Source of the DNA: a virus
Lineage: Duplodnaviria > Heunggongvirae > Uroviricota > Caudoviricetes
Strand: one strand, 5' to 3'
Length of the DNA stretch: 14,330 nucleotides
IMG/VR virus record: IMGVR_UViG_2695420809_000009
Span: 1-14,330 of that record
Position numbers and translations under genes: made by a program. Below, piece by piece: positions 2,621 through 14,330 of the stretch (position 1 is the first letter of the stretch; each line of letters opens with the position of its first letter). Below the pieces are notes generated by a model. That model was given only the letters and a program-made list of their open reading frames with translations, made no database searches and had not been told where the DNA came from.

Positions 2621-2732
2621 AACTGAAGTTGCCCTGAAAATGAAATTTTTTTGCACAACCGCAGAACTTTTCCGCAGGGCATCAGTCTTAATTAGTGCCA
2701 CTGCTTTTCTTTGATGTCCCCATTTTGTGGAG

Positions 2733-2779
2733 CCCATCAACCCCGCCATTTCGGTTCAAGGTTGATGGGTTTTTTGTTG
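2733..2779 (+). terminator. candidate rho-independent terminator downstream of ybjL
   Basis: CCCATCAACC (2733-2742) pairs with GGTTGATGGG (2760-2769), followed by TTTTTTGTTG; the 17-nt loop is longer than typical. Confidence 0.5.
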
Positions 2780-2855
2780 TCTGAAATTTATGCCGTTTAA
2801 AATCATGACGTTAGAAGCACTGTTTTTTAACGATGGCGACAAAATGGCGGCAGCG

Positions 2856-4265: not shown

Positions 4266-4747
4266 GACAGCAGCCCTCCCACCGTTTTACTGATATCGCT
4301 TAAGGCAGACGTTGCCGTGTCCTGCAGATTATTCAGTTGCGCACTGAGATCACCGAACATATCGGACAGGGATTCATCCACTCGTTTGAGCGACAGGGTG
4401 AACTCAATCCGGCGCGGCATACCGTCGCGGAAAAACTCCGTTTTAGTCTGATTCAGTCCCTCAATCACATACATGCCGTAAATCGTGCCGCTGCCTTCAA
4501 TCAGGGGCCATGCTTTCCCCTGTTCTGCCATCTGCTCCAGTGCCAGCAACGACAGCCTGCCGCCTGTTATTTCCGGCATAAGAACACCGGAAAGCGTCAG
4601 CATGTCGTTTTCCGGTCCCAGAAACTGCGTGGACGGACGTCGGTTTACCCGACTGTTTGCCGCATGTCGCCAGCTGCGTTGATACTGCAGTTCCTGATAC
4701 GGAACGGTGCGCAGCATAAACACGTACAATCCCAGCACCATCATCAT
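4262..4747 (-). CDS. P2 gpU-like tail protein
   Basis: 161-aa ORF starting MMM; length and position (between tape measure and D) as in P2; start overlaps the stop of the upstream fusion ORF. Confidence 0.8.
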   Translation of the reverse strand: MMMVLGLYVFMLRTVPYQELQYQRSWRHAANSRVNRRPSTQFLGPENDMLTLSGVLMPEITGGRLSLLALEQMAEQGKAWPLIEGSGTIYGMYVIEGLNQTKTEFFRDGMPRRIEFTLSLKRVDESLSDMFGDLSAQLNNLQDTATSALSDISKTVGGLLS

Positions 4748-6411
4748 GCGTCGTATCCCCCCTGATCGCTGTAGTTACTCCTGGCTTTTGCCTTCAGCCT
4801 GCGTTCACGTTCATCAAGCTGGCGTGCCACCTCCCGCGCAATATCCTGCGCACTTTGTCCTGGCTGCGTCTGAATGATGATCTGCGTCGGTGCCTCAATC
4901 CGTTGAACGAGCGGCACAGTGGCTGCGCGACTCACAATTGCTTCTCCACCTTTCGCGGGAAGTGCCAAAGGGTGCAACGGTGGAAGCTCTGCTGGCGCGG
5001 CAGCAACGCCCATCATTCCGGCAACAACGGCAGCCAGTGCAGCTGTATTTCTCCGGCTGGTCACATTTGCCGGGCCGTTAACAATTTCCGGCCCGTTTTC
5101 ACCGACGATGCCAAACTGCCCGCGCGGGATATACCCGCCGCTGTCATACATCCCCGCAAAGCCATATCCCCATGATGGAAAACCACCCGATGGCATCATC
5201 ACTTTACCGTCTGCATTCACCGTCGCAGGTTGCTGACGCGTCACGCTTTCCGGCAGTTTTGCCTTTGCGGCCTCTTTACTGACAATGCCGAGCTTCTCCA
5301 GCAACCAGGAAACGCCGGATTTCAGGGAATCCAGCGGATGCATGACCATATTCAGCCCTTCCGCCAGTGCCTCCCCGAATCGCCGCCCCATTGCCGCTGC
5401 GCTCTGCAGTTCGGCAGAGGTCGACTTAACGGGCGTCAGCAGATCAGTAAACCAGCCCCACAGCGCCTGCACTTTGTCGCCAATCCACTGGAACACGGGC
5501 TTAAGCGGTTCGAACGCTGCACTGATGGGACCTGCCGCCGCTTTGAATCCTTCCACCACGCCACCGAGAAATGCGGTGATGGATTGCCAGTATTTCCAGA
5601 CAACCAGCGCCACGCCCGCCAGTGCAGTAACCACAAGACCTATCGGACTGAGCAGAGCACCTAACAGACCAGATACCGGGTCCTGCAGATCCCAGAACAC
5701 ATCAGCAGAAATTCCGGTGACACCGTTCACGCCCACGTTGGACAGGCTTTTGTGCCATCCAGTCTGCTCATCAATTTTGGCGCGCAGACCGAGCGCACGG
5801 GCGGTGGCATATGCCGTTGCTTCGGCATTCAGCACCGTGTCCCAGCCAGTAAAGTCAGGCCAGATCAGCATCCCTTCGCGCTGGCTGAAGTTTTCGCGGT
5901 AAGTGATCGCCTCCTGCACTGTCTTGCAGCCATACGCTGACAGGTAAGCAAACCCACGCAGGCTTTGCGCCACGCTCAGCAACTCAGTAGCTACCGCCTT
6001 GGTGTCGTGGCCTGGCACGCCGAGAATGCGCGGTTTAACGCCGAGCTGTGACTGGGCAGATAACAGGGCTTTCATACCTGTTTTTTTACCTTCAGCAGTC
6101 ACTGCGCCGATGATATTGGTCGTGGTTTCTTCTTCCGTTTCACCCTGCGGCACACGCACAACAACGGTCACGGGTTTTGCCTGGTCAGCGATGGCATCCA
6201 GCGAGCGGGCCAGTGTGCCGGACTCACCCGCTTTACCGCTGGCAGTCAGCACATCAGTGATCAGCACGGGTTTATTAAGAGGAAACATTTTTGCATCGGC
6301 ATCATCGCCCGTGCAGACCATCCCCACGATGGCGGTGCTCACCGTGGTAATGGATCGGGTGCCTTCGTTGACTTCAACAACGCGCACCCCGTGGTGGTAA
6401 TCCTGAGCCAT
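4744..6411 (-). CDS. in-frame fusion: N-terminal ~240 aa of a P2 FI-like tail sheath protein joined to the C-terminal ~310 aa of a tape-measure (gpT-like) protein; likely a deletion derivative
   Basis: N-terminus (MAQDYHHGVRVVEVNEGTRSITTVSTAIVGMVC...) matches my recollection of the P2 sheath N-terminus. After about residue 244 (around nt 5680) the sequence switches to a hydrophobic and Ala/Gly-rich tape-measure-like C-terminus. Strong AGGAGG Shine-Dalgarno upstream of the ATG at 6411. Confidence 0.7.
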   Translation of the reverse strand: MAQDYHHGVRVVEVNEGTRSITTVSTAIVGMVCTGDDADAKMFPLNKPVLITDVLTASGKAGESGTLARSLDAIADQAKPVTVVVRVPQGETEEETTTNIIGAVTAEGKKTGMKALLSAQSQLGVKPRILGVPGHDTKAVATELLSVAQSLRGFAYLSAYGCKTVQEAITYRENFSQREGMLIWPDFTGWDTVLNAEATAYATARALGLRAKIDEQTGWHKSLSNVGVNGVTGISADVFWDLQDPVSGLLGALLSPIGLVVTALAGVALVVWKYWQSITAFLGGVVEGFKAAAGPISAAFEPLKPVFQWIGDKVQALWGWFTDLLTPVKSTSAELQSAAAMGRRFGEALAEGLNMVMHPLDSLKSGVSWLLEKLGIVSKEAAKAKLPESVTRQQPATVNADGKVMMPSGGFPSWGYGFAGMYDSGGYIPRGQFGIVGENGPEIVNGPANVTSRRNTAALAAVVAGMMGVAAAPAELPPLHPLALPAKGGEAIVSRAATVPLVQRIEAPTQIIIQTQPGQSAQDIAREVARQLDERERRLKAKARSNYSDQGGYDA

Positions 6412-6553: not shown

Positions 6554-7120
6554 TCAGGGGGATTCATTGCTCTTATTTGCCGGAAATTTTCTATAAATGG
6601 TAGAAACGCCCACATCAAAAATCAGTGCAATACGCTGTCTTGATTCTCCGGCCTCGAGTAAACGTCCAATCTGTGCCCACTGTTCGGTGGTCAACTTAGG
6701 ACGGCGTCCACCTACTCTGCCTTTGGCGCGAGCTGCAGCAAGCCCCGCCCTGGTACGTTCAACTATCAGTTCGCGCTCCATTTCAGCCAGGGCCCCCATG
6801 ACATGAAAAAAGAAACGTCCCATTGGGGTACTGGTATCAATACTGTCAGTCAGGCTTCGGAAATTCACGCCACGCTGGCGCAGATCTTCTATCAGCGTAA
6901 CGAGATGCCGCATACTGCGCCCCAACCTGTCCAGCTTCCAGACAACCAGAGTGTCACCTGCCGATAATGTCCTGAGCAGTTTTTTCAGTCCCGGTCTGTC
7001 GGACTTAGTGCCACTGATTTTGTCCTCAAAAATCCGCTCACATCCCGCGCAGTTCAGTGCATTACGTTGCAAATCGGTGTTCTGGTCATTTGTTGACACG
7101 CGTACATAGCCAATAAGCAT
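6554..7120 (-). CDS. Pin/Gin/Hin/Cin-family serine DNA invertase (copy 1)
   Basis: N-terminus MLIGYVRVSTNDQNTDLQRNAL with catalytic serine context, plus C-terminal HTH; closely resembles my recollection of e14 PinE. Start taken at the ATG at 7120 (MLIGYV) rather than the ORF-track start at 7126. Confidence 0.9.
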   Translation of the reverse strand: MLIGYVRVSTNDQNTDLQRNALNCAGCERIFEDKISGTKSDRPGLKKLLRTLSAGDTLVVWKLDRLGRSMRHLVTLIEDLRQRGVNFRSLTDSIDTSTPMGRFFFHVMGALAEMERELIVERTRAGLAAARAKGRVGGRRPKLTTEQWAQIGRLLEAGESRQRIALIFDVGVSTIYRKFPANKSNESP

Positions 7121-7201
7121 GATCAATCCCCTGAATAAAAACCGGGGATGATGCCAGTTAGTCGTAATCGCTGCATTTTCTTAAACGTTGGTTTGAGAGA
7201 A
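7083..7201. repeat. left arm of inverted repeat (pin 5' end, leader, crossover site)
   Basis: Manual alignment: 7083-7201 matches the reverse complement of 9042-9160 with about 10 mismatches over about 120 bp; similarity continues outward through both pin genes and ends inward exactly at the crossover sites. Confidence 0.75.
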
Positions 7202-7822
7202 GGTTCATTTGGGTTCAGAAATCTGGTTGCCTTCACAACGGCTGGAGTAACAAGCTGGACTGTTCCTGAAGAGTTGCGCAAAGGAAGAAAATGTTACGTC
7301 AAAGTTATTGGTGGCGGTGCGTCAGGAGGGATAGGTTCAACAACCGCTTCAGCCGTTACATGTGGCGGAGGAGGTGGTGGGGGCGGAGTTGCTGAGGGGC
7401 TGGTAGATTTAACTGGTATAAACAGTGTTTCGATTACGGTTGGTACCGGTGGTGCGCCTGTGTCTGGTATTTCTGTAAACGGTAAAAATGGTGGCTCGAG
7501 CAGTTTCGGGACTTACATGTCAGCTTCCGGAGGCTATAGCGGAGGCCAGCCTTCCGGAGGGTTAGGCGCAGTTGGTGTCGGGGGAACAATTAATATATCG
7601 CTTGGGCCAGGTTCTCCAGGTTCCATTGCTTCTGCCGCATCGGGAGCTGGTAATGGTGGTTCTGGTGGTGGCCCCGGAGGAGCAGGTTCATTCAGAGATA
7701 CAGCTAACGGAAAAGCGGTATCAGCAGTTGGGCCTGGAGGTGGCGGAGCTGGATTATGTCCTAATTCATCAACGGGTCAGTCGGGTGCCGGAGCAGATGG
7801 CGCAGTTTATATTTACTGGTGA
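7148..7822 (+). CDS. tail-fibre variable C-terminal segment, glycine-rich (no constant N-terminal part present)
   Basis: 224-aa ORF beginning MMPVSRNRCIFLNVGL inside the repeat arm; in-frame TAA three codons upstream of the ATG; long Gly/Ser-rich body; reads into the invertible segment. Confidence 0.6.
   Translation: MMPVSRNRCIFLNVGLREGSFGFRNLVAFTTAGVTSWTVPEELRKGRKCYVKVIGGGASGGIGSTTASAVTCGGGGGGGGVAEGLVDLTGINSVSITVGTGGAPVSGISVNGKNGGSSSFGTYMSASGGYSGGQPSGGLGAVGVGGTINISLGPGSPGSIASAASGAGNGGSGGGPGGAGSFRDTANGKAVSAVGPGGGGAGLCPNSSTGQSGAGADGAVYIYW
7176..7201. other. 26-bp hix/gix/cix-like crossover site (left)
   Basis: TTTTCTTAAACGTTGGTTTGAGAGAA, an imperfect palindrome with AAACC/GGTTT half-site cores; sits at the boundary between the repeat arm and the divergent interior. 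Confidence 0.65.
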
Positions 7823-7829
7823 GGTTCAT

Positions 7830-8000
7830 ATGTGGGCAAGAATTGAAGAAAATAAAGTAGAAGAGATAACGGAAATTAATCCTGAAGGAAGATTCCATCC
7901 ATCATTAATATGGAAAGAATGCCCTGCTGACACACAGCAGGGGGATTTATATATTGATGGTGAGTTTATTGCGCAGTCTCCGGCAGTTCAGGCCAGATAA
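7830..8000 (+). CDS. small 56-aa ORF downstream of the Gly-rich fibre segment, possibly a truncated tail-fibre assembly gene
   Basis: ATG at 7830 preceded by GAGG; sits where a partner chaperone gene would be expected; its 3' end overlaps the convergent tfa gene. No recognisable motif, so this call is weak. Confidence 0.3.
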   Translation: MWARIEENKVEEITEINPEGRFHPSLIWKECPADTQQGDLYIDGEFIAQSPAVQAR

Positions 8001-8574
8001 CATCCGGCGCGGTGCTGGTATCTGTTGCCGTCACCGCGTCAATGTAATCCAACACCGTGTTAAGTCGGCTGGTTTCTGACTGCGTCAGATTCCGTCCGGC
8101 CTGTAATTTCAGCTGAATCAGACTAATGGAAGCCATTGCAGTATCAATCAGTGACTGACGCTGTGCTTCTGCCGCGTCTACTGCGGCGCTATGCTGTGCC
8201 TCAGTATCGGTCACCCATTTCTCACCATCCCATTTATCGTATGGCGTTAATGGGGCGATAGTGGTTGTATTTTCGGGGTGATCACCCGGTGCTGTGATTT
8301 CTTTGGCATCTCCCGTTTCGGTGTTATAGACGATTTCACCGCGATGGTCTGGCACATATTCCCATGAATTTAAATCTACAGAACGGCAAATTGTATAACC
8401 AGCCTTATATGTACCAGGAGCGTCTAAACAGGAATATGCTGGAATACCGACACCCACTGCAAGATATTCAGTTGATGCAGAAATATATTCCCGAGTTTCA
8501 CCATCGTAGTTATAGACGGTAATATTCCCCGCCTTCGTGGCAATAAACTCGCTATTTAATACTGCGTTATCCAT
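7966..8574 (-). CDS. tail-fibre assembly chaperone (Tfa family)
   Basis: 202-aa ORF ending ...DTSTAPDVIWPELPETAQ, the conserved Tfa C-terminal motif; ATG overlaps the stop of the upstream fibre segment (TAATG). Confidence 0.8.
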   Translation of the reverse strand: MDNAVLNSEFIATKAGNITVYNYDGETREYISASTEYLAVGVGIPAYSCLDAPGTYKAGYTICRSVDLNSWEYVPDHRGEIVYNTETGDAKEITAPGDHPENTTTIAPLTPYDKWDGEKWVTDTEAQHSAAVDAAEAQRQSLIDTAMASISLIQLKLQAGRNLTQSETSRLNTVLDYIDAVTATDTSTAPDVIWPELPETAQ

Positions 8575-9095
8575 TATGCAGCCCTTACGATAAAGTTAAA
8601 TGCAATATTTCGTGGACGGGTCTCACTCCCGCCAGTATTACCGATACTCCCTCGTGAATGAAGTGTCGGTGATGGGATCAGACTCCCTCCTGTATTTGTG
8701 GCATCAAGTCCCCGTCCTTGTGTGTATGTTTTTTTGAAAATCGTAGCCAGTTCCCATTCATCTTTTGTGTCGTAACCATCATTGGCAACAACAATATGGC
8801 GGTGTTTTTCCAGCATCCCAGCCTGAAGGCTCAATAAAGCACGTCCAGCATCAATACCACGCCCGTCATCCCAGCCACGAATAAACTCACCACGTAAATC
8901 TGGCAATTTATTTGTCGGGTAAGCCTTTGCCAGTTCCGGGTATTCTTCAGCAGAAAAAGCTGCTCCGTTGCATTTCAGCCAGCCTGTTGGCGGAGTGGCT
9001 GAAGGCCACGGAACAGGGACACCAACAGGTAATGCAGAGCCTTCTCCCAAACCAACGTTTAAGAAAATGCAGAGATTATGGCTAACTGGCATCAT
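8574..9095 (-). CDS. tail-fibre variable C-terminal segment with tail-collar-type receptor-binding motifs
   Basis: 173-aa ORF beginning MMPVSHNLCIFLNVGLGEG; motifs PVPWP...GWLKCNGAAF...LPDLRGEFIRGWDDGRGID are typical of Mu/P1/e14-type fibre distal domains; the crossover site lies in codons about 10-18. Confidence 0.75.
   Translation of the reverse strand: MMPVSHNLCIFLNVGLGEGSALPVGVPVPWPSATPPTGWLKCNGAAFSAEEYPELAKAYPTNKLPDLRGEFIRGWDDGRGIDAGRALLSLQAGMLEKHRHIVVANDGYDTKDEWELATIFKKTYTQGRGLDATNTGGSLIPSPTLHSRGSIGNTGGSETRPRNIAFNFIVRAA
9042..9067. other. 26-bp hix/gix/cix-like crossover site (right)
   Basis: TTCTCCCAAACCAACGTTTAAGAAAA, in inverted orientation to the left site and differing from it at one position. 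Confidence 0.65.
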
Positions 9096-9160
9096 CCCCG
9101 GTTTTTACTCAGGGGAATGCTCATGCTTATTGGCTATGTCCGCGTATCAACAAATAACCA
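9042..9160. repeat. right arm of inverted repeat
   Basis: Reverse complement aligns to 7083-7201 (see left arm). Confidence 0.75.
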
Positions 9161-9677
9161 GAATACGGAATTACAGCGTAATGCGCTGGAGTGTGCAGGA
9201 TGTGAGCTGATTTTTGAAGACAAGATAAGCGGTACAAAGTCCGACAGACCAGGACTGAAAAAGCTGCTCAGGACATTATCGGCAGGTGACACGCTGGTGG
9301 TCTGGAAACTGGACCGACTGGGGCGCAGTATGCGGCATCTTGTCGTGCTGGTGGAGGAGTTGCGCGAACGAGGCATCAACTTTCGTAGTCTGACGGATTC
9401 AATTGATACCAGTACCCCAATGGGGCGCTTTTTCTTTCATGTGATGGGTGCCCTGGCTGAAATGGAGCGTGAACTGATTGTTGAACGAACAAAAGCTGGA
9501 CTGGAAGCAGCTCGCGCACAGGGACGAATTGGTGGACGTCGTCCCAAACTTACACCAGAACAATGGGCGCAGGCCGGGCGATTAATTGCATCAGGCGTTC
9601 CTCGCCAAAAGGTGGCGATCATCTATGATGTTGGTATATCGACACTGTATAAGAAGTTTCCGGTCGGAGATAAATGA
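9123..9677 (+). CDS. Pin/Gin/Hin/Cin-family serine DNA invertase (copy 2)
   Basis: 184 aa from ATG at 9123 (MLIGYVRVSTNNQNTELQRNAL...); roughly 85% amino-acid identity to copy 1 by eye, so the two are diverged rather than recently duplicated. Confidence 0.9.
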   Translation: MLIGYVRVSTNNQNTELQRNALECAGCELIFEDKISGTKSDRPGLKKLLRTLSAGDTLVVWKLDRLGRSMRHLVVLVEELRERGINFRSLTDSIDTSTPMGRFFFHVMGALAEMERELIVERTKAGLEAARAQGRIGGRRPKLTPEQWAQAGRLIASGVPRQKVAIIYDVGISTLYKKFPVGDK

Positions 9678-9719
9678 AACCGTAGCACGTCGTATGCAAG
9701 AAGATCGTGCTGCGGTTTA
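9678..9719. terminator. stem-loop between convergent pin copy 2 and the GIY-YIG gene
   Basis: AAACCGTAGCACG ... CGTGCTGCGGTTT, a 13-bp stem with one G-T wobble and a 16-nt loop; no clear U-tract on either strand. Confidence 0.3.
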
Positions 9720-9737
9720 TGCTTATCACTTAAAGAC

Positions 9738-10607
<870 letters not shown>

Positions 10608-10687
10608 CTAAGTCTTTGAATTTACATAGTACAAAAAAGATACTTTTCCTCATAATGTGAATTAATTTTATGTTTCGTTTGATGATT

Positions 10688-10753
10688 GGACCGGTCTCGA
10701 AAACCGGAGTAGGGGCAACTCTACCGGGGGTTCAAATCCCCCTCTCTCCGCCA
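10688..10753 (+). other. 3' fragment of a tRNA-Ser(CGA) (serU-like) gene, an integration-site scar
   Basis: GGACCGGTCTCGAAAACCGGAGTAGGGGCAACTCTACCGGGGGTTCAAATCCCCCTCTCTCCGCCA: anticodon arm with CGA anticodon, long variable arm, T-arm and CCA end; no 5' acceptor or D-arm sequence upstream. Confidence 0.7.
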
Positions 10754-11335
10754 CTTTATCAATGACTTATCTCCCGACTTCCCGCCTTGCTTTTCCTAAA
10801 CAGAACAATCGTAGAATATTCTTGAAGGGTTAGATCGTCACTGTTTTCTGTTCGATACTGTGACATTCAGCACTTGATTCGCTATGGATCTGACAGGAAG
10901 GTTTCGAGCGAAAATCTGCAGTTATTCAGTCGTTTTCTTATCGGTCACCATTATTCTTTTAGACATTGATCCTACAAAGCTGCCGCAAAGTTGGTGGTGG
11001 GAACTGAAGTTGCGTAGAGAAGGGGTCAATACCCGGAGGCAAACATGGGCTGGCAAAAGTGTAGCGGTATTAGGCGCAGCTATTTAGCCTAGTTATGTTT
11101 TATGAAAACTTGATATCATATAAGTGTCTTACTTATTGGCTGTAAATAAGTTTTTCCTAAGGAATTGTTTCTTGAGTATCATTTGTAACTGTAACGGAAT
11201 TTATAATCCTTTGCTTTATTGTTACGGTATTTTTTATCACACCCTATTTTTAGTGGTTTTTTATACTGAAGTTTGGCAAAGTGAACTTTATATACATATA
11301 CTTCATCCTAGTTTCAGTTAAATTGGGTGGATGAT

Positions 11336-12079
11336 ATGGCAACTACATGTTCAGTTATATTGATTTTGGAGTCCTTTGATGTTTATTTCGGAAAAGAGAG
11401 TGTGTTTCTGGAGAGAGGTTCATCTGTACTTGTCGACTCTAGCTCTAGAGATTTTTTCCTGACATATCCTGAAAGAGTGATAGTGGCGGATTTTGGCGCT
11501 GAGTTTATTAGTCGCTATTTGAAAGCTAATAACTTAAGGGATATTTCTGATTGTAGGGAATATCCATCTTATTTAAAAATAAACTTTGCTGACTTCAGTT
11601 TAATTAAAGGATTAATTAGTTGGGCTAATCACTGTGCTGAATACATAGAAATTTTTGATGAGTCTATTGCTTTTACATGTCTCTCTGCATTTTCTTCTGA
11701 AAAACAATTTGGAGTATTTCTGTTTGGATGTTTGAAAAGCACAGGGGCTAAAGTTAAAACGATTATTCATACGGATTTATCTGCACCATGGCGTCTTAAG
11801 GATATATCATCAAGATTATATCTCAGCGAAAGTTTACTAAAGAGGAAATTGAAAGAAGAGGGGGTATCATTCAGTAAGATCATACTTGATGAGAGGATGC
11901 AAATGGCTGAATATTTACTCAGCACTCGTTGTTATCCTATTAGTAAAGTAGCTAAGGTCTGTGGTTATGCCAGTGTCTCATACTTTACTTATGTATTTAG
12001 ACGTTATTTTGGTGTTTCTCCAAGTCAATACTCTCAGAGGAGTTCAGAAAGTAAAATTCTTACTCACCAGGGAATCTGA
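11336..12079 (+). CDS. AraC/XylS-family transcriptional regulator, AppY/EnvY/Rns-like
   Basis: 247 aa from ATG at 11336, preceded by GGTGGA; N-terminus MATTCSVILILESFD resembles AppY; C-terminal double HTH signature (WRLKDISSRLYLSES...VAKVCGYASVSYFTYVFRRYFGVSPSQY); AT-rich codon usage. Confidence 0.8.
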   Translation: MATTCSVILILESFDVYFGKESVFLERGSSVLVDSSSRDFFLTYPERVIVADFGAEFISRYLKANNLRDISDCREYPSYLKINFADFSLIKGLISWANHCAEYIEIFDESIAFTCLSAFSSEKQFGVFLFGCLKSTGAKVKTIIHTDLSAPWRLKDISSRLYLSESLLKRKLKEEGVSFSKIILDERMQMAEYLLSTRCYPISKVAKVCGYASVSYFTYVFRRYFGVSPSQYSQRSSESKILTHQGI

Positions 12080-12087
12080 TCATTGTT

Positions 12088-12545
12088 CTTGCCCCCTTAT
12101 TTCCAGACAGGGGGTGTATCTTAAGTTAACGTTACCCGCTGACGTCGATATTCTCGCGGAGAGCGATAACCCAACGCACTGTGCGGATGGTTTTCATTGT
12201 AATGTTCGATCGCCACTGCAAGATTATGCAATGCCGTTCTTACATTCGGTTTCGGCATGAACGCGATGTAGTCTTCCTTCATCGTTTTCACGAACCTTTC
12301 TGCAATTCCATTACTCTGAGGACTGCTGATTGCCGTTGTGCAGGGCTCCAGATTCAACTCTCTGGCGAACTGCCGTGTTTCATGCGCTCTATACGCTGAA
12401 CCGTTATCTGTCAGCCACTGGATGGACTGTTCCGGTACTTTATCGCCAAAGCGTTTTTCTATCGCTCCTAACATGACATCCTGCACTGTCGCTTTATCGT
12501 AACCTCCCGTGCTTGCGGCCCAGTCTATGGCTTCACGATCGCAAC
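12088..12545 (-). mobile_element. IS2-like (IS3 family) element remnant, 3' portion only
   Basis: Reverse complement of 12088-12120 resembles the IS2 right terminal repeat (...TGTCTGGAAATAAGGGGGCA); the transposase-coding match stops abruptly near 12545. Confidence 0.6.
12121..12486 (-). pseudogene. IS2-like transposase (InsD/OrfB) C-terminal fragment
   Basis: 121-aa ORF (...[25 protein letters not shown]...[20 protein letters not shown]...[14 protein letters not shown]) aligns to the C-terminal third of IS2 InsD as I recall it; the catalytic N-terminal two-thirds are missing. Confidence 0.7.
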
Positions 12546-12833
12546 AGTCCAGGGCGATTCATCTGGGCCAATCCTTGCTCATAACAGGCATTCACTTCAG
12601 TCATGGCAGAAAGGTATGCATGCTGGAGAAGTCGTGAAAGAAAAGAAGACTGCTGCGCCGTTTGTCGTCACGTTTATCTTCATTGGCTATGCAAGTCGTA
12701 ATACAAGGTGGGACAAAACTGAGACACATAAGGCCTCGCAATGGCTTGCAAGGCTTTACATGTTTTGATGTGGTGGGACGTGTGAGCGCAGTGTTGATGG
12801 GGTAATGCTTTGAATTAGAAGCGGATTCTTATA

Positions 12834-12878
12834 ATTCGTAATGCGAAGGTCGTAGGTTCGACTCCTATTATCGCACCA
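12834..12878 (+). other. 3' fragment of a tRNA-Thr(CGU) (thrW-like) gene, an integration-site scar
   Basis: ATTCGTAATGCGAAGGTCGTAGGTTCGACTCCTATTATCGCACCA: anticodon loop with CGT, T-arm and CCA end; one base shorter in the acceptor 3' strand than my recollection of thrW; no 5' half upstream. Confidence 0.6.
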
Positions 12879-13032
12879 TTCTAACGTCTCCCCAAGTCTA
12901 CTCAAGTATTTAAAAACCTCTTATAATCAGTATATTAATGCCCCTTTTAGTCTTTTGACGTCTATTTAAGTACCCCAAACTCTACAAGCAATTGAGGGGA
13001 TTTGCTGTTCAGTTTAGTGGAGATACCCCCAA

Positions 13033-13371
13033 GTGAAACTCAATGCCCGTCAAATAGACACTGCCAAGCCAAAAGAGAAGGCTTACAAGTTGGCTGATGG
13101 TGGTGGTCTGTACCTCCTGGTAAAACCTGGTGGAGGAGAATATTGGCGTCTCAAGTATCGTGTAGCTGGTAAAGAGAAGCTGTTAGCACTAGGTGTGTAT
13201 CCTGAGGTCACCTTAGCTGATGCTCCTGCAAAACTTGAAGAAGCTAAAAGAGGTATCTCTGGGGGAATCGATCTGATGGAAGTGAAGCGAGAGGAAAAGA
13301 TTGCCCGGGAAACGCAGTTAAACAACACCTTCAAAGATATTGCCCTTGAGTGGCACAGTAACAAATTATAA
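13033..13371 (+). pseudogene. P4-type tyrosine integrase, N-terminal fragment only
   Basis: 112-aa ORF (GTG start) with the N-terminal arm-binding signature AKPKEKAYKLADGGGLYLLVKPGGGEYWRLKYRVAGKEKLLALGVYPEV; stops after about 110 aa where full integrases run to about 400 aa; lies directly 3' of the tRNA-Thr fragment. Confidence 0.75.
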
Positions 13372-13805
13372 TCACAATAATAGTGTATATAATTATACAT
13401 TGTATGCTTGGTAATCATATAATGATAAAAGCTTCCGATAATCAGTATGAGATTTGTCCTTAAACTCCGGGACATGCTTTTCTAAATCTTCCAATGGTAT
13501 ATGTCCATTTATACAAATAAAATTCTAGTGATAAATACCTTCAGGTATGATTAGACAACATCTTTATTCGATGGGGGTTAATCTATATTTGATATCTTTC
13601 TTTTAAATAACAACGCCATTAAAAACGCTTTGTTTAATGACGTTTTTTTATTGTTTCCTATATAAAGCCTAACCAGCATAAACATTGGTGGCTCTTATGC
13701 TCATTGTAATTAAATGAGAGTGTGATTAATGTCTTTATATATTCTGGTAGTTATTCTCTCCAGAAGAATACATTGTAAGAAGATGACTGTTAGCATGTTT
13801 TAACA

Positions 13806-14300
13806 TCAATTAACATTAAGGTTTGATAATAATTTTTTGTTGGCGAGTTCAAATGTTTTCATTTCATCATCTGATAGCCCGCTCCAGATTTTCTTTAGCA
13901 TTACATTTTGAGTGTTTATTAGTTTTTGAGCAAGTGTAACTCCGTCAGGGGTTAAGCAAATACTTTTGCTTCGACGATCGTTTTTATTATTAATTCTTTT
14001 GGCAATATTCTTTTTTTCTAATTTGTCTATGATGTGTGTGATGTTTGTTTTGGAGAATTGTAACTCCTTGTAAATATCAGAAGGGGACTGACAATAATCA
14101 TCAGACATATATAATGAAACTAACACCATAAATGTTGAAGTGTTTATTCTATACTCGCTCAATTCATTTTCTATAATACTCTGGATTTTGTCATTTACTC
14201 TAATATATAAGTGTATTAACAGACTCTCCTGAGCCGGGTATGCCGGATTTTTGATTTTTTTGTAGTTTGTTATAGTTTTTAATAAATCTATATTATTCAT
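13806..14300 (-). CDS. MarR-family (winged-helix) transcriptional regulator
   Basis: 164 aa from ATG at 14300, preceded by GGTGGA; central DRRSKSICLTPDGVTLAQKL resembles the MarR/SlyA wing region; strongly AT-rich; the ORF-track start at 14330 is at the window edge. Confidence 0.55.
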   Translation of the reverse strand: MNNIDLLKTITNYKKIKNPAYPAQESLLIHLYIRVNDKIQSIIENELSEYRINTSTFMVLVSLYMSDDYCQSPSDIYKELQFSKTNITHIIDKLEKKNIAKRINNKNDRRSKSICLTPDGVTLAQKLINTQNVMLKKIWSGLSDDEMKTFELANKKLLSNLNVN

Positions 14301-14330
14301 AATTCCACCACACGGCAAAAGAAAACTCAT

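Follow-up and report, generated by a model that had tools for sequence, protein, structure and literature searches.

The partial serine tRNA gene at positions 10688-10753 of the window (the whole stretch of 14,330 nucleotides of viral DNA that was analysed) is best explained, with a probability of about 85%, as part of a fossil attR junction that was internalised in the genomes of temperate phages and is now carried as inert cargo. The 66-nt fragment (hereafter serU', plus strand) is the core (O) of this fossil attR and not a functional tRNA. On its left, between a GIY-YIG nuclease gene and the core, lies the right-end DNA of a serU-integrating SfV-like phage (P arm, 10563-10687, plus strand), and on its right lie 278 bp of native chromosomal flank from downstream of serU, on the yodB side (B' arm, 10754-11031, plus strand).

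Direct alignment with serU of E. coli K-12 (NC_000913, 2043468-2043557, minus strand; a tRNA of 90 nt) showed that 10688-10753 is identical at 66/66 positions to nt 25-90 of this tRNA-Ser(CGA), in agreement with the preliminary description, which had placed about 66 nt from the 3' part of a serU-type tRNA at exactly these coordinates and had named a lack of similarity on direct alignment as the result that would speak against it. The match starts 2 nt ahead of the anticodon stem and takes in the CGA anticodon, the long variable arm and the T arm, ending with CCA. The 5' half had been described as missing, and the alignment with K-12 bears this out, as nt 1-24 of the tRNA, comprising the 5' strand of the acceptor stem and the D arm, are absent and the DNA left of the core has no relation to the serU locus. 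The same description had also pointed to a tRNA scanner as the means of revealing a complete fold; ARAGORN reported 0 tRNA or tmRNA genes in the whole window, so no intact gene is present. At the gathering score, Rfam recognised RybB alone in the whole window (2700-2778, 105 bits), and a permissive scan of 10300-11100 returned just sub-threshold partial matches over 10699-10750, among them the T-arm of tmRNA and an antisense plastid trnS-derived UTR. With no full cloverleaf and no scanner or thresholded Rfam tRNA match, serU' fails as a functional tRNA-Ser gene.

These data also bear on the proposal that the fragment acts as a functional RNA element, either as a tRNA-derived sRNA or as a 5' leader or terminator for the adjacent genes, which is extremely unlikely. 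In isolation serU' keeps the anticodon, variable and T hairpins of the tRNA while the acceptor stem is absent, and it is situated 583 bp upstream of the gene for an AraC-family regulator, both of which would suit such a role. Nevertheless, the stability of the fold is not above that of shuffled sequences (z = -1.27), and no Rfam family reached its threshold over the fragment. Promoter and terminator scans found nothing in the serU-derived DNA and no terminator-like site, and the sole promoter-like site for the regulator, at 11273-11302, lies beyond the serU-derived DNA.

The match to serU is not a product of chance, because the identity runs on for another 278 bp beyond the tRNA. Window positions 10688-11031 align with K-12 serU plus its flank at 97.7% identity (E = 3e-170), and the captured copy shares 99.7% identity with the native serU locus found in strain CB6886, which is regarded as a candidate for the donor-like lineage from which the serU flank may have been captured. 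In the loci that were read (K-12 and CB6886), the flank is positioned directly downstream of serU. Nearly all of the 5406 genomes with a match have homology to its first 276-278 bp, mostly as one copy, and nearly all have it at serU irrespective of whether a prophage resides there. Across the approximately 4,900 genomes that have the flank at serU alone, the homology stops at 11031, and past this position the window continues as AT-rich foreign DNA, not as yodB-proximal DNA. At the CB6886 locus itself (NZ_OZ392451.1, 4946905-4953182), yodB is absent and zinT comes after serU.

A chimeric query consisting of the left arm, the core, the 278 bp and the K-12 yodB-proximal sequence was searched against complete E. 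coli genomes, and the contiguous junction was found in 5 of them, namely MB15 and 4 others; the serU-occupied prophage state is thus still found in a few strains. On the left side of the MB15 prophage are mtfA, intact serU, three cargo genes and the integrase. The prophage, of about 39 kb, is SfV-like, with lambdoid early genes and a myovirus-type tail, and its right end consists of tail fibres, pinE, the GIY-YIG gene, serU', the 278-bp flank and yodB. The window is collinear with this attR end over 9041-11031 at 96% identity. Hence the three parts expected of an attR are all found in the window: the core is the 3' part of serU, the left side is the end of a serU phage, and the right side is the native flank, in this case 278 bp only. 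Because the attR of a native serU prophage matches the arm, core and flank of the window, the fragment is a genuine junction of phage arm P, core O and host flank B' from a serU phage. As judged from the MB15 sequence, a temperate SfV-like phage enters serU by tyrosine-integrase recombination, with an identity block of about 66 bp that starts just ahead of the anticodon stem and reaches the 3' end. Such integration remakes an intact serU at attL and leaves pinE and PD-T4-3 (the GIY-YIG gene), nt 25-90 of the tRNA and the native flank in succession at attR.

MB15 further helps to weigh a different reading of the 278 bp, according to which the window holds an intact phage attP (P-O-P') for serU, the 278 bp being phage DNA and the corresponding E. 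coli flank an ancient prophage remnant. The core and the 278 bp do occur together in viable phage genomes, and the complete identity block for recombination is present. At the attL of MB15, however, the DNA past serU resembles the 278 bp for no more than a few bases beyond CCA, so the phage arm P' is unrelated to it; the 278 bp is therefore host flank (B') and not a phage arm. The presence of the flank at serU with or without a prophage speaks against phage DNA as well. In addition, the block has no linked serU-type integrase, and its carriers use other integration sites, namely thrW in the Sp1/GF8 type and a position adjoining ybhB-bioA in an ev099-type prophage. An intact attP is thus considered very unlikely.

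The fossil junction is by no means confined to the window. The junction (10560-10900, coverage of at least 80%) was detected in 429/5426 complete E. coli genomes and the flank plus the AraC gene in 542 complete genomes, while the junction with exactly 278 bp fused at 11031/11032 to AraC/IS DNA is carried by about 10% of complete E. coli genomes. In the window, the AT-rich cargo joined to the flank at 11031/11032 contains the AraC-family regulator gene (11336-12079, plus strand; Pfam HTH_AraC/HTH_18). It is followed by an IS3-family transposase fragment (12121-12557, minus strand; Pfam rve_3/rve), which forms the right limit of the block common to lambdoid phages, and then by thrW' (12834-12880, plus strand), a 3' part of tRNA-Thr that serves as the attachment repeat closing the scar-bearing prophage. 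The identity of thrW' to thrW covers 40-48 bp, from nt 31 to the 3' end, and its core of 47 bp was set by overlap, as the homology to the EC21Z-014 prophage extends to 12880 and the homology to the thrW-vat region of ATCC 11775 starts from 12834.

In 3/3 genomes that were read (GF8, the O157-like strain 277 and EC21Z-014), the scar-bearing prophage is bounded by thrW and thrW', and the scar lies about 2.1 kb inside this true boundary of its carrier. In GF8, an apparently complete SfV-like prophage has the block at its right end and extends from intact thrW and an integrase to the thrW' repeat; next come a P4-like satellite, a third thrW fragment and then yagP'/pao, the genes normally found at the thrW locus. 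For most of its extent this prophage shares about 97% identity with that of MB15, the difference lying in the int/att module. In strain 277, which is collinear with window 9040-12879 at 97%, the block ends a short defective thrW prophage and a P4-like element follows. In EC21Z-014, the block is again at the right end of the thrW prophage, and window 7183-12880 is 99.8% identical to it. Sp1 and Sp2 of O157 are located at thrW (PMC8190617), and by sequence comparison the strain 277 arrangement is that of Sp1 plus Sp2, or CP-933H plus CP-933I, at thrW. Placement of the scar by an inversion between a serU prophage and another location was also considered and was rejected, given that the block is at an un-rearranged thrW locus in the three genomes read. 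One further record, the 64-kb circular 'plasmid unnamed3' of MS 69-1 (NZ_CP146678.1), bears the junction; it contains a copy of the thrW region (ecp, pao and the prophage end) with many frameshifts and probably reflects an assembly error, not an episome. This frameshift-ridden copy of the chromosomal region was set aside as uninformative about the scar.

The serU-derived stretch of about 340 bp (core plus flank) was also found in three sequenced lambdoid phages, ev099, mEp332 and PhiR70_1, at 98.8-99.3% identity. In ev099 and mEp332 the common stretch is longer and corresponds to window 10692-12557 at about 99%, covering the core, the 278 bp, the AraC gene and the IS fragment. In both phages the block is located between a tail-fibre assembly gene and an integrase-excisionase pair, a location equivalent to the lambda b region. 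Host flank joined to a hybrid att, with a serU-phage arm on its left, is therewith present in packaged phage genomes. The integration module that ev099 and mEp332 themselves possess is not of the serU type, and the attachment region of both lies immediately beyond the int stop. The mEp332 record is in prophage order with int first, and resident prophages remain homologous to the right end of ev099 up to a point about 70 bp short of the int stop. One ev099-type prophage, in which the block is cut by an IS1, adjoins ybhB-bioA, the lambda attachment region, and no thrW core was found in ev099 or mEp332. The left arm of the ev099 type differs from the window arm and is 95% identical over 123 bp to the serU attR arm of prophage SerU-LTIIb (KU052038), whose record has the order side tail fibre, 62-nt pseudo-tRNA-Ser, yodB. 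This lambdoid-arm version exists in 97 further complete genomes, and among the sequenced virion genomes of the phage collection the version with PD-T4-3 beside serU' was not found.

The preliminary description had ascribed the position of the fragment away from a serU locus to rearrangement of the ybjL-linked DNA. This explanation fails, as the same scar with the same 278 bp is present in thrW-bounded prophages, with the junction in 429 genomes, and likewise in the 97 further genomes and the three lambdoid phages. Since the scar occurs at other loci and in phages, it is carried passively as phage cargo. A matching att repeat and a nearby integrase had likewise been proposed as the partners to look for, and the window offers neither. 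There is no second serU core in the window and no 12-mer of the core recurs in it, and tblastn with the integrases of MB15 (serU-type), GF8 (thrW-type) and ev099 gave no match in the window, the MB15 query having none below E = 1. The sole integrase remnant in the window is a truncated Arm-type (P4-like) fragment of 112 aa (13033-13371, plus strand; Pfam Arm-DNA-bind_3), which belongs to the left end of the thrW-associated vat island and is unrelated to serU. Lacking both a partner repeat and a serU-type integrase in the window, the scar is not an active att site in its present place. The view of the fragment as the attachment repeat of a tRNA-targeting element thus holds for its origin, in light of the attR junction in MB15 and the 4 other genomes, and fails for the element in the window, of which it is not a repeat.

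The same evidence decides against the possibility that the fragment is an active attR or attL of a serU element and that the serU locus itself was moved beside ybjL by rearrangement. The junction is structurally a true attR and an inter-prophage rearrangement does exist in the window, but native serU DNA ends after 278 bp and AraC/IS DNA stands in place of yodB. Besides the missing partner repeat and cognate integrase, the occurrence of the block in phage genomes and at the un-rearranged thrW loci of GF8, strain 277 and EC21Z-014 makes such an active site highly improbable.

For the fossil junction, the comparison of copies suggests a single origin. All copies of the block have one breakpoint between the 278 bp and the AraC DNA, at 11031, and they share several distal substitutions within the 278 bp relative to the native flanks of K-12, MB15 and SerU-LTIIb. 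In the proposed course of events, an attR with 278 bp of host flank from a CB6886-like serU locus would have passed into a phage genome once, when a serU prophage excised imprecisely or underwent illegitimate recombination, in a manner resembling specialised transduction. The captured flank would then have been fused to the AraC/IS cargo and the resulting block would have spread between phages by modular exchange, during which the left phage arm may have been exchanged at least one time by recombination within the approximately 340 bp common to native serU attR sites. No intermediate with AraC/IS DNA next to the 278 bp was found at a native serU locus. Two independent captures from the CB6886-like lineage could also account for two phage arms on one block, but they are disfavoured because of the common breakpoint at 11031.

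In its present state, the scar would serve neither as a tRNA nor as an att site for its carrier, nor would it act as a promoter of the adjacent regulator. It is most probably inert, because it is not a tRNA, the repeats of the carrier are those of thrW, and the promoter-like site of the regulator is outside the serU-derived DNA. A more active part would fall to the scar if it were kept as a portable secondary attB or hotspot, at which serU integrases, or RecA acting on the 340-bp homology, swap modules or dock a phage. This would explain why two phage arms end exactly at one scar: two unrelated serU-phage arms, one SfV-like and one lambdoid, meet the same block exactly at the edge of tRNA identity, and the full core is intact. 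If so, whole arms would be swapped between myovirus-tailed SfV-like phages and lambdoid siphoviruses, or a second phage would be inserted in the first. However, the serU core has no informative differences, so that a site-specific and a homologous arm swap look the same in it, no prophage is inserted in the scar in any genome examined, and recent spread explains the identity among the copies. A docking role is accordingly judged rather unlikely, and the scar is preferably understood as inert cargo.

Two genes travel beside the scar. The gene directly adjacent to it, in the att-proximal cargo slot of the prophage, encodes a 257-aa GIY-YIG protein (9738-10511, minus strand) that was identified as the anti-phage nuclease PD-T4-3/CMoRE by a full-length PADLOC match (E = 2.7e-140) and contains the Pfam domain LEM-3_GIY-YIG. 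PD-T4-3 has been characterised under the name CMoRE and is a type IV restriction endonuclease that targets DNA with 5hmC and glucosyl-5hmC (PMC12923530). On the other side, the AraC gene is 99.6% identical at the DNA level to its counterpart in O157:H7, where it is in the prophage beside thrW, and it is also common to the lambdoid phages ev099 and mEp332. The order pinE, GIY-YIG gene, serU', AraC gene (PatE), IS fragment and thrW core is that of an Sp1/CP-933H-type right end, and the tail-fibre genes of CP-933H are Z0314 and Z0316. The regulator PatE is z0321 of OI-8; it activates genes for acid resistance and exerts negative control over LEE genes (PMC10877973). Because of this synteny and the DNA identity with O157, the AraC gene of the window is putatively assigned as PatE of O157 OI-8/CP-933H; the name 'PatE' is absent for this AraC protein in protein clusters.

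serU is a known site of phages and islands, as exemplified by Sakai Sp14 and PAI-serU. The serU attR junctions of Sakai Sp14, SerU-LTIIb and MB15 resemble the window in having the same core and the same downstream host flank, and that of MB15 additionally has the same phage arm ending in pinE and PD-T4-3. They differ in that they are at the serU locus, with yodB next and with an intact serU and the cognate integrase at the other end of the prophage, whereas the window copy has 278 bp of flank only, foreign DNA next to it and no partner or integrase. The right end of Sp1/CP-933H (O-island 8) is also similar to the window, from the tail fibre through pinE, the GIY-YIG gene, serU', the AraC gene and the IS fragment to thrW' (97-99.6%). 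In the window, unlike in Sp1/CP-933H, this right end is detached from the rest of a thrW prophage and joined instead to the P2-like prophage found at rybB; its other neighbour is the vat island, where Sp1/CP-933H has the P4-like Sp2.

In the lambda gal and bio specialised transducing phages, imprecise excision captures DNA that flanks the att site. As in these phages, the scar consists of prophage-adjacent host DNA on a hybrid att that is now in a phage genome beside the integration module. Unlike them, the capture is small (278 bp, with no host gene), evolutionarily fixed and widely disseminated, its carrier uses a different integrase and att module, and the excision step itself is inferred. 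The tRNA repeats of islands, such as UPEC PAI-serU and vat at thrW, are similar in that a partial tRNA copy arose from integrase recombination in the 3' part of the gene. However, such repeats mark the current boundary of the element, while the boundary of the carrier lies about 2.1 kb beyond the scar, which derives from another tRNA.

A partial tRNA beside phage genes is usually taken as an element boundary, and the scar would therefore mislead tools for calling prophage boundaries and islands in about 10% of E. coli genomes, including Sp1/CP-933H of O157:H7. The serU site (Sp14, PAI-serU), Sp1 and Sp2 at thrW, PatE and PD-T4-3 have already been published; a limited literature search found nothing on the serU scar inside these elements. 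The scar provides a dated, traceable natural case in which att-adjacent host DNA was captured by a temperate phage and passed between phage families, and the capture travels with two clinically relevant genes, for the defence nuclease PD-T4-3/CMoRE and the PatE-type acid-resistance regulator. It implies no new mechanism, and its value is mainly for annotation and interpretation.

The remainder of the window records a rearrangement of its own. The first part, from position 1 to about 7183, contains grxA, ybjM, ybjL and RybB along with the late end of a P2-like prophage. The ogr end of this prophage is within about 80 bp of rybB (window 2700-2855), and the P2-like phage appears to have inserted directly 3' of rybB, between rybB and the expected position of rcdA (ybjK). 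Compared with strain NRZ103545, a 3.6-kb deletion has fused the N-terminal part of the tail sheath in frame to the C-terminal part of the tape measure (4744-6411, minus strand, 555 aa, breakpoint 5675/5676). The prophage is defective because this deletion removes tail genes, namely gpE, gpE+E' and the gene for the tube, together with portions of the sheath and tape-measure genes. One invertible tail-fibre segment lies between two Pin/Gin-type invertase genes (window 6554-9677), one in each prophage: a Pin/Gin-type gene of the P2-like prophage (6554-7126, minus strand) and pinE, the Pin-type gene of the thrW prophage (9123-9677, plus strand). The 12-bp crossover motif AAACGTTGGTTT is at 7183-7194 and its inverted partner at 9049-9060.

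The homology switches exactly at the crossover motif at 7183-7194, with about 95% P2-like homology before it and, from 7183, 99.8-99.9% identity to EC21Z-014 at the right end of its thrW prophage. An inversion of about 600 kb between thrW and rybB, via the invertase site or homology of the segment, would leave the flanks oriented as they are. On the far side, thrW' is followed by the truncated Arm-type integrase and then by a MarR-type regulator gene (window 12834-14330). This stretch is the left end of the vat island and is 99.8% identical to the B2 type strain ATCC 11775, in which the same integrase pseudogene follows thrW and is in turn followed by MarR and vat. vat stands for the vacuolating autotransporter toxin, and its island is one found in B2 ExPEC strains; the presence of the left end of the island in the window suggests a B2-type source strain. 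The proposal that islands had been rearranged or stacked here was thus sound in itself, as the P2-like prophage at rybB is fused to a thrW prophage end that abuts the vat island, but this event is separate from the scar. Complete genomes contain no example of the rearranged arrangement, and it is 100% identical in a 596-kb draft contig of NCBI assembly GCA_001284385.1.
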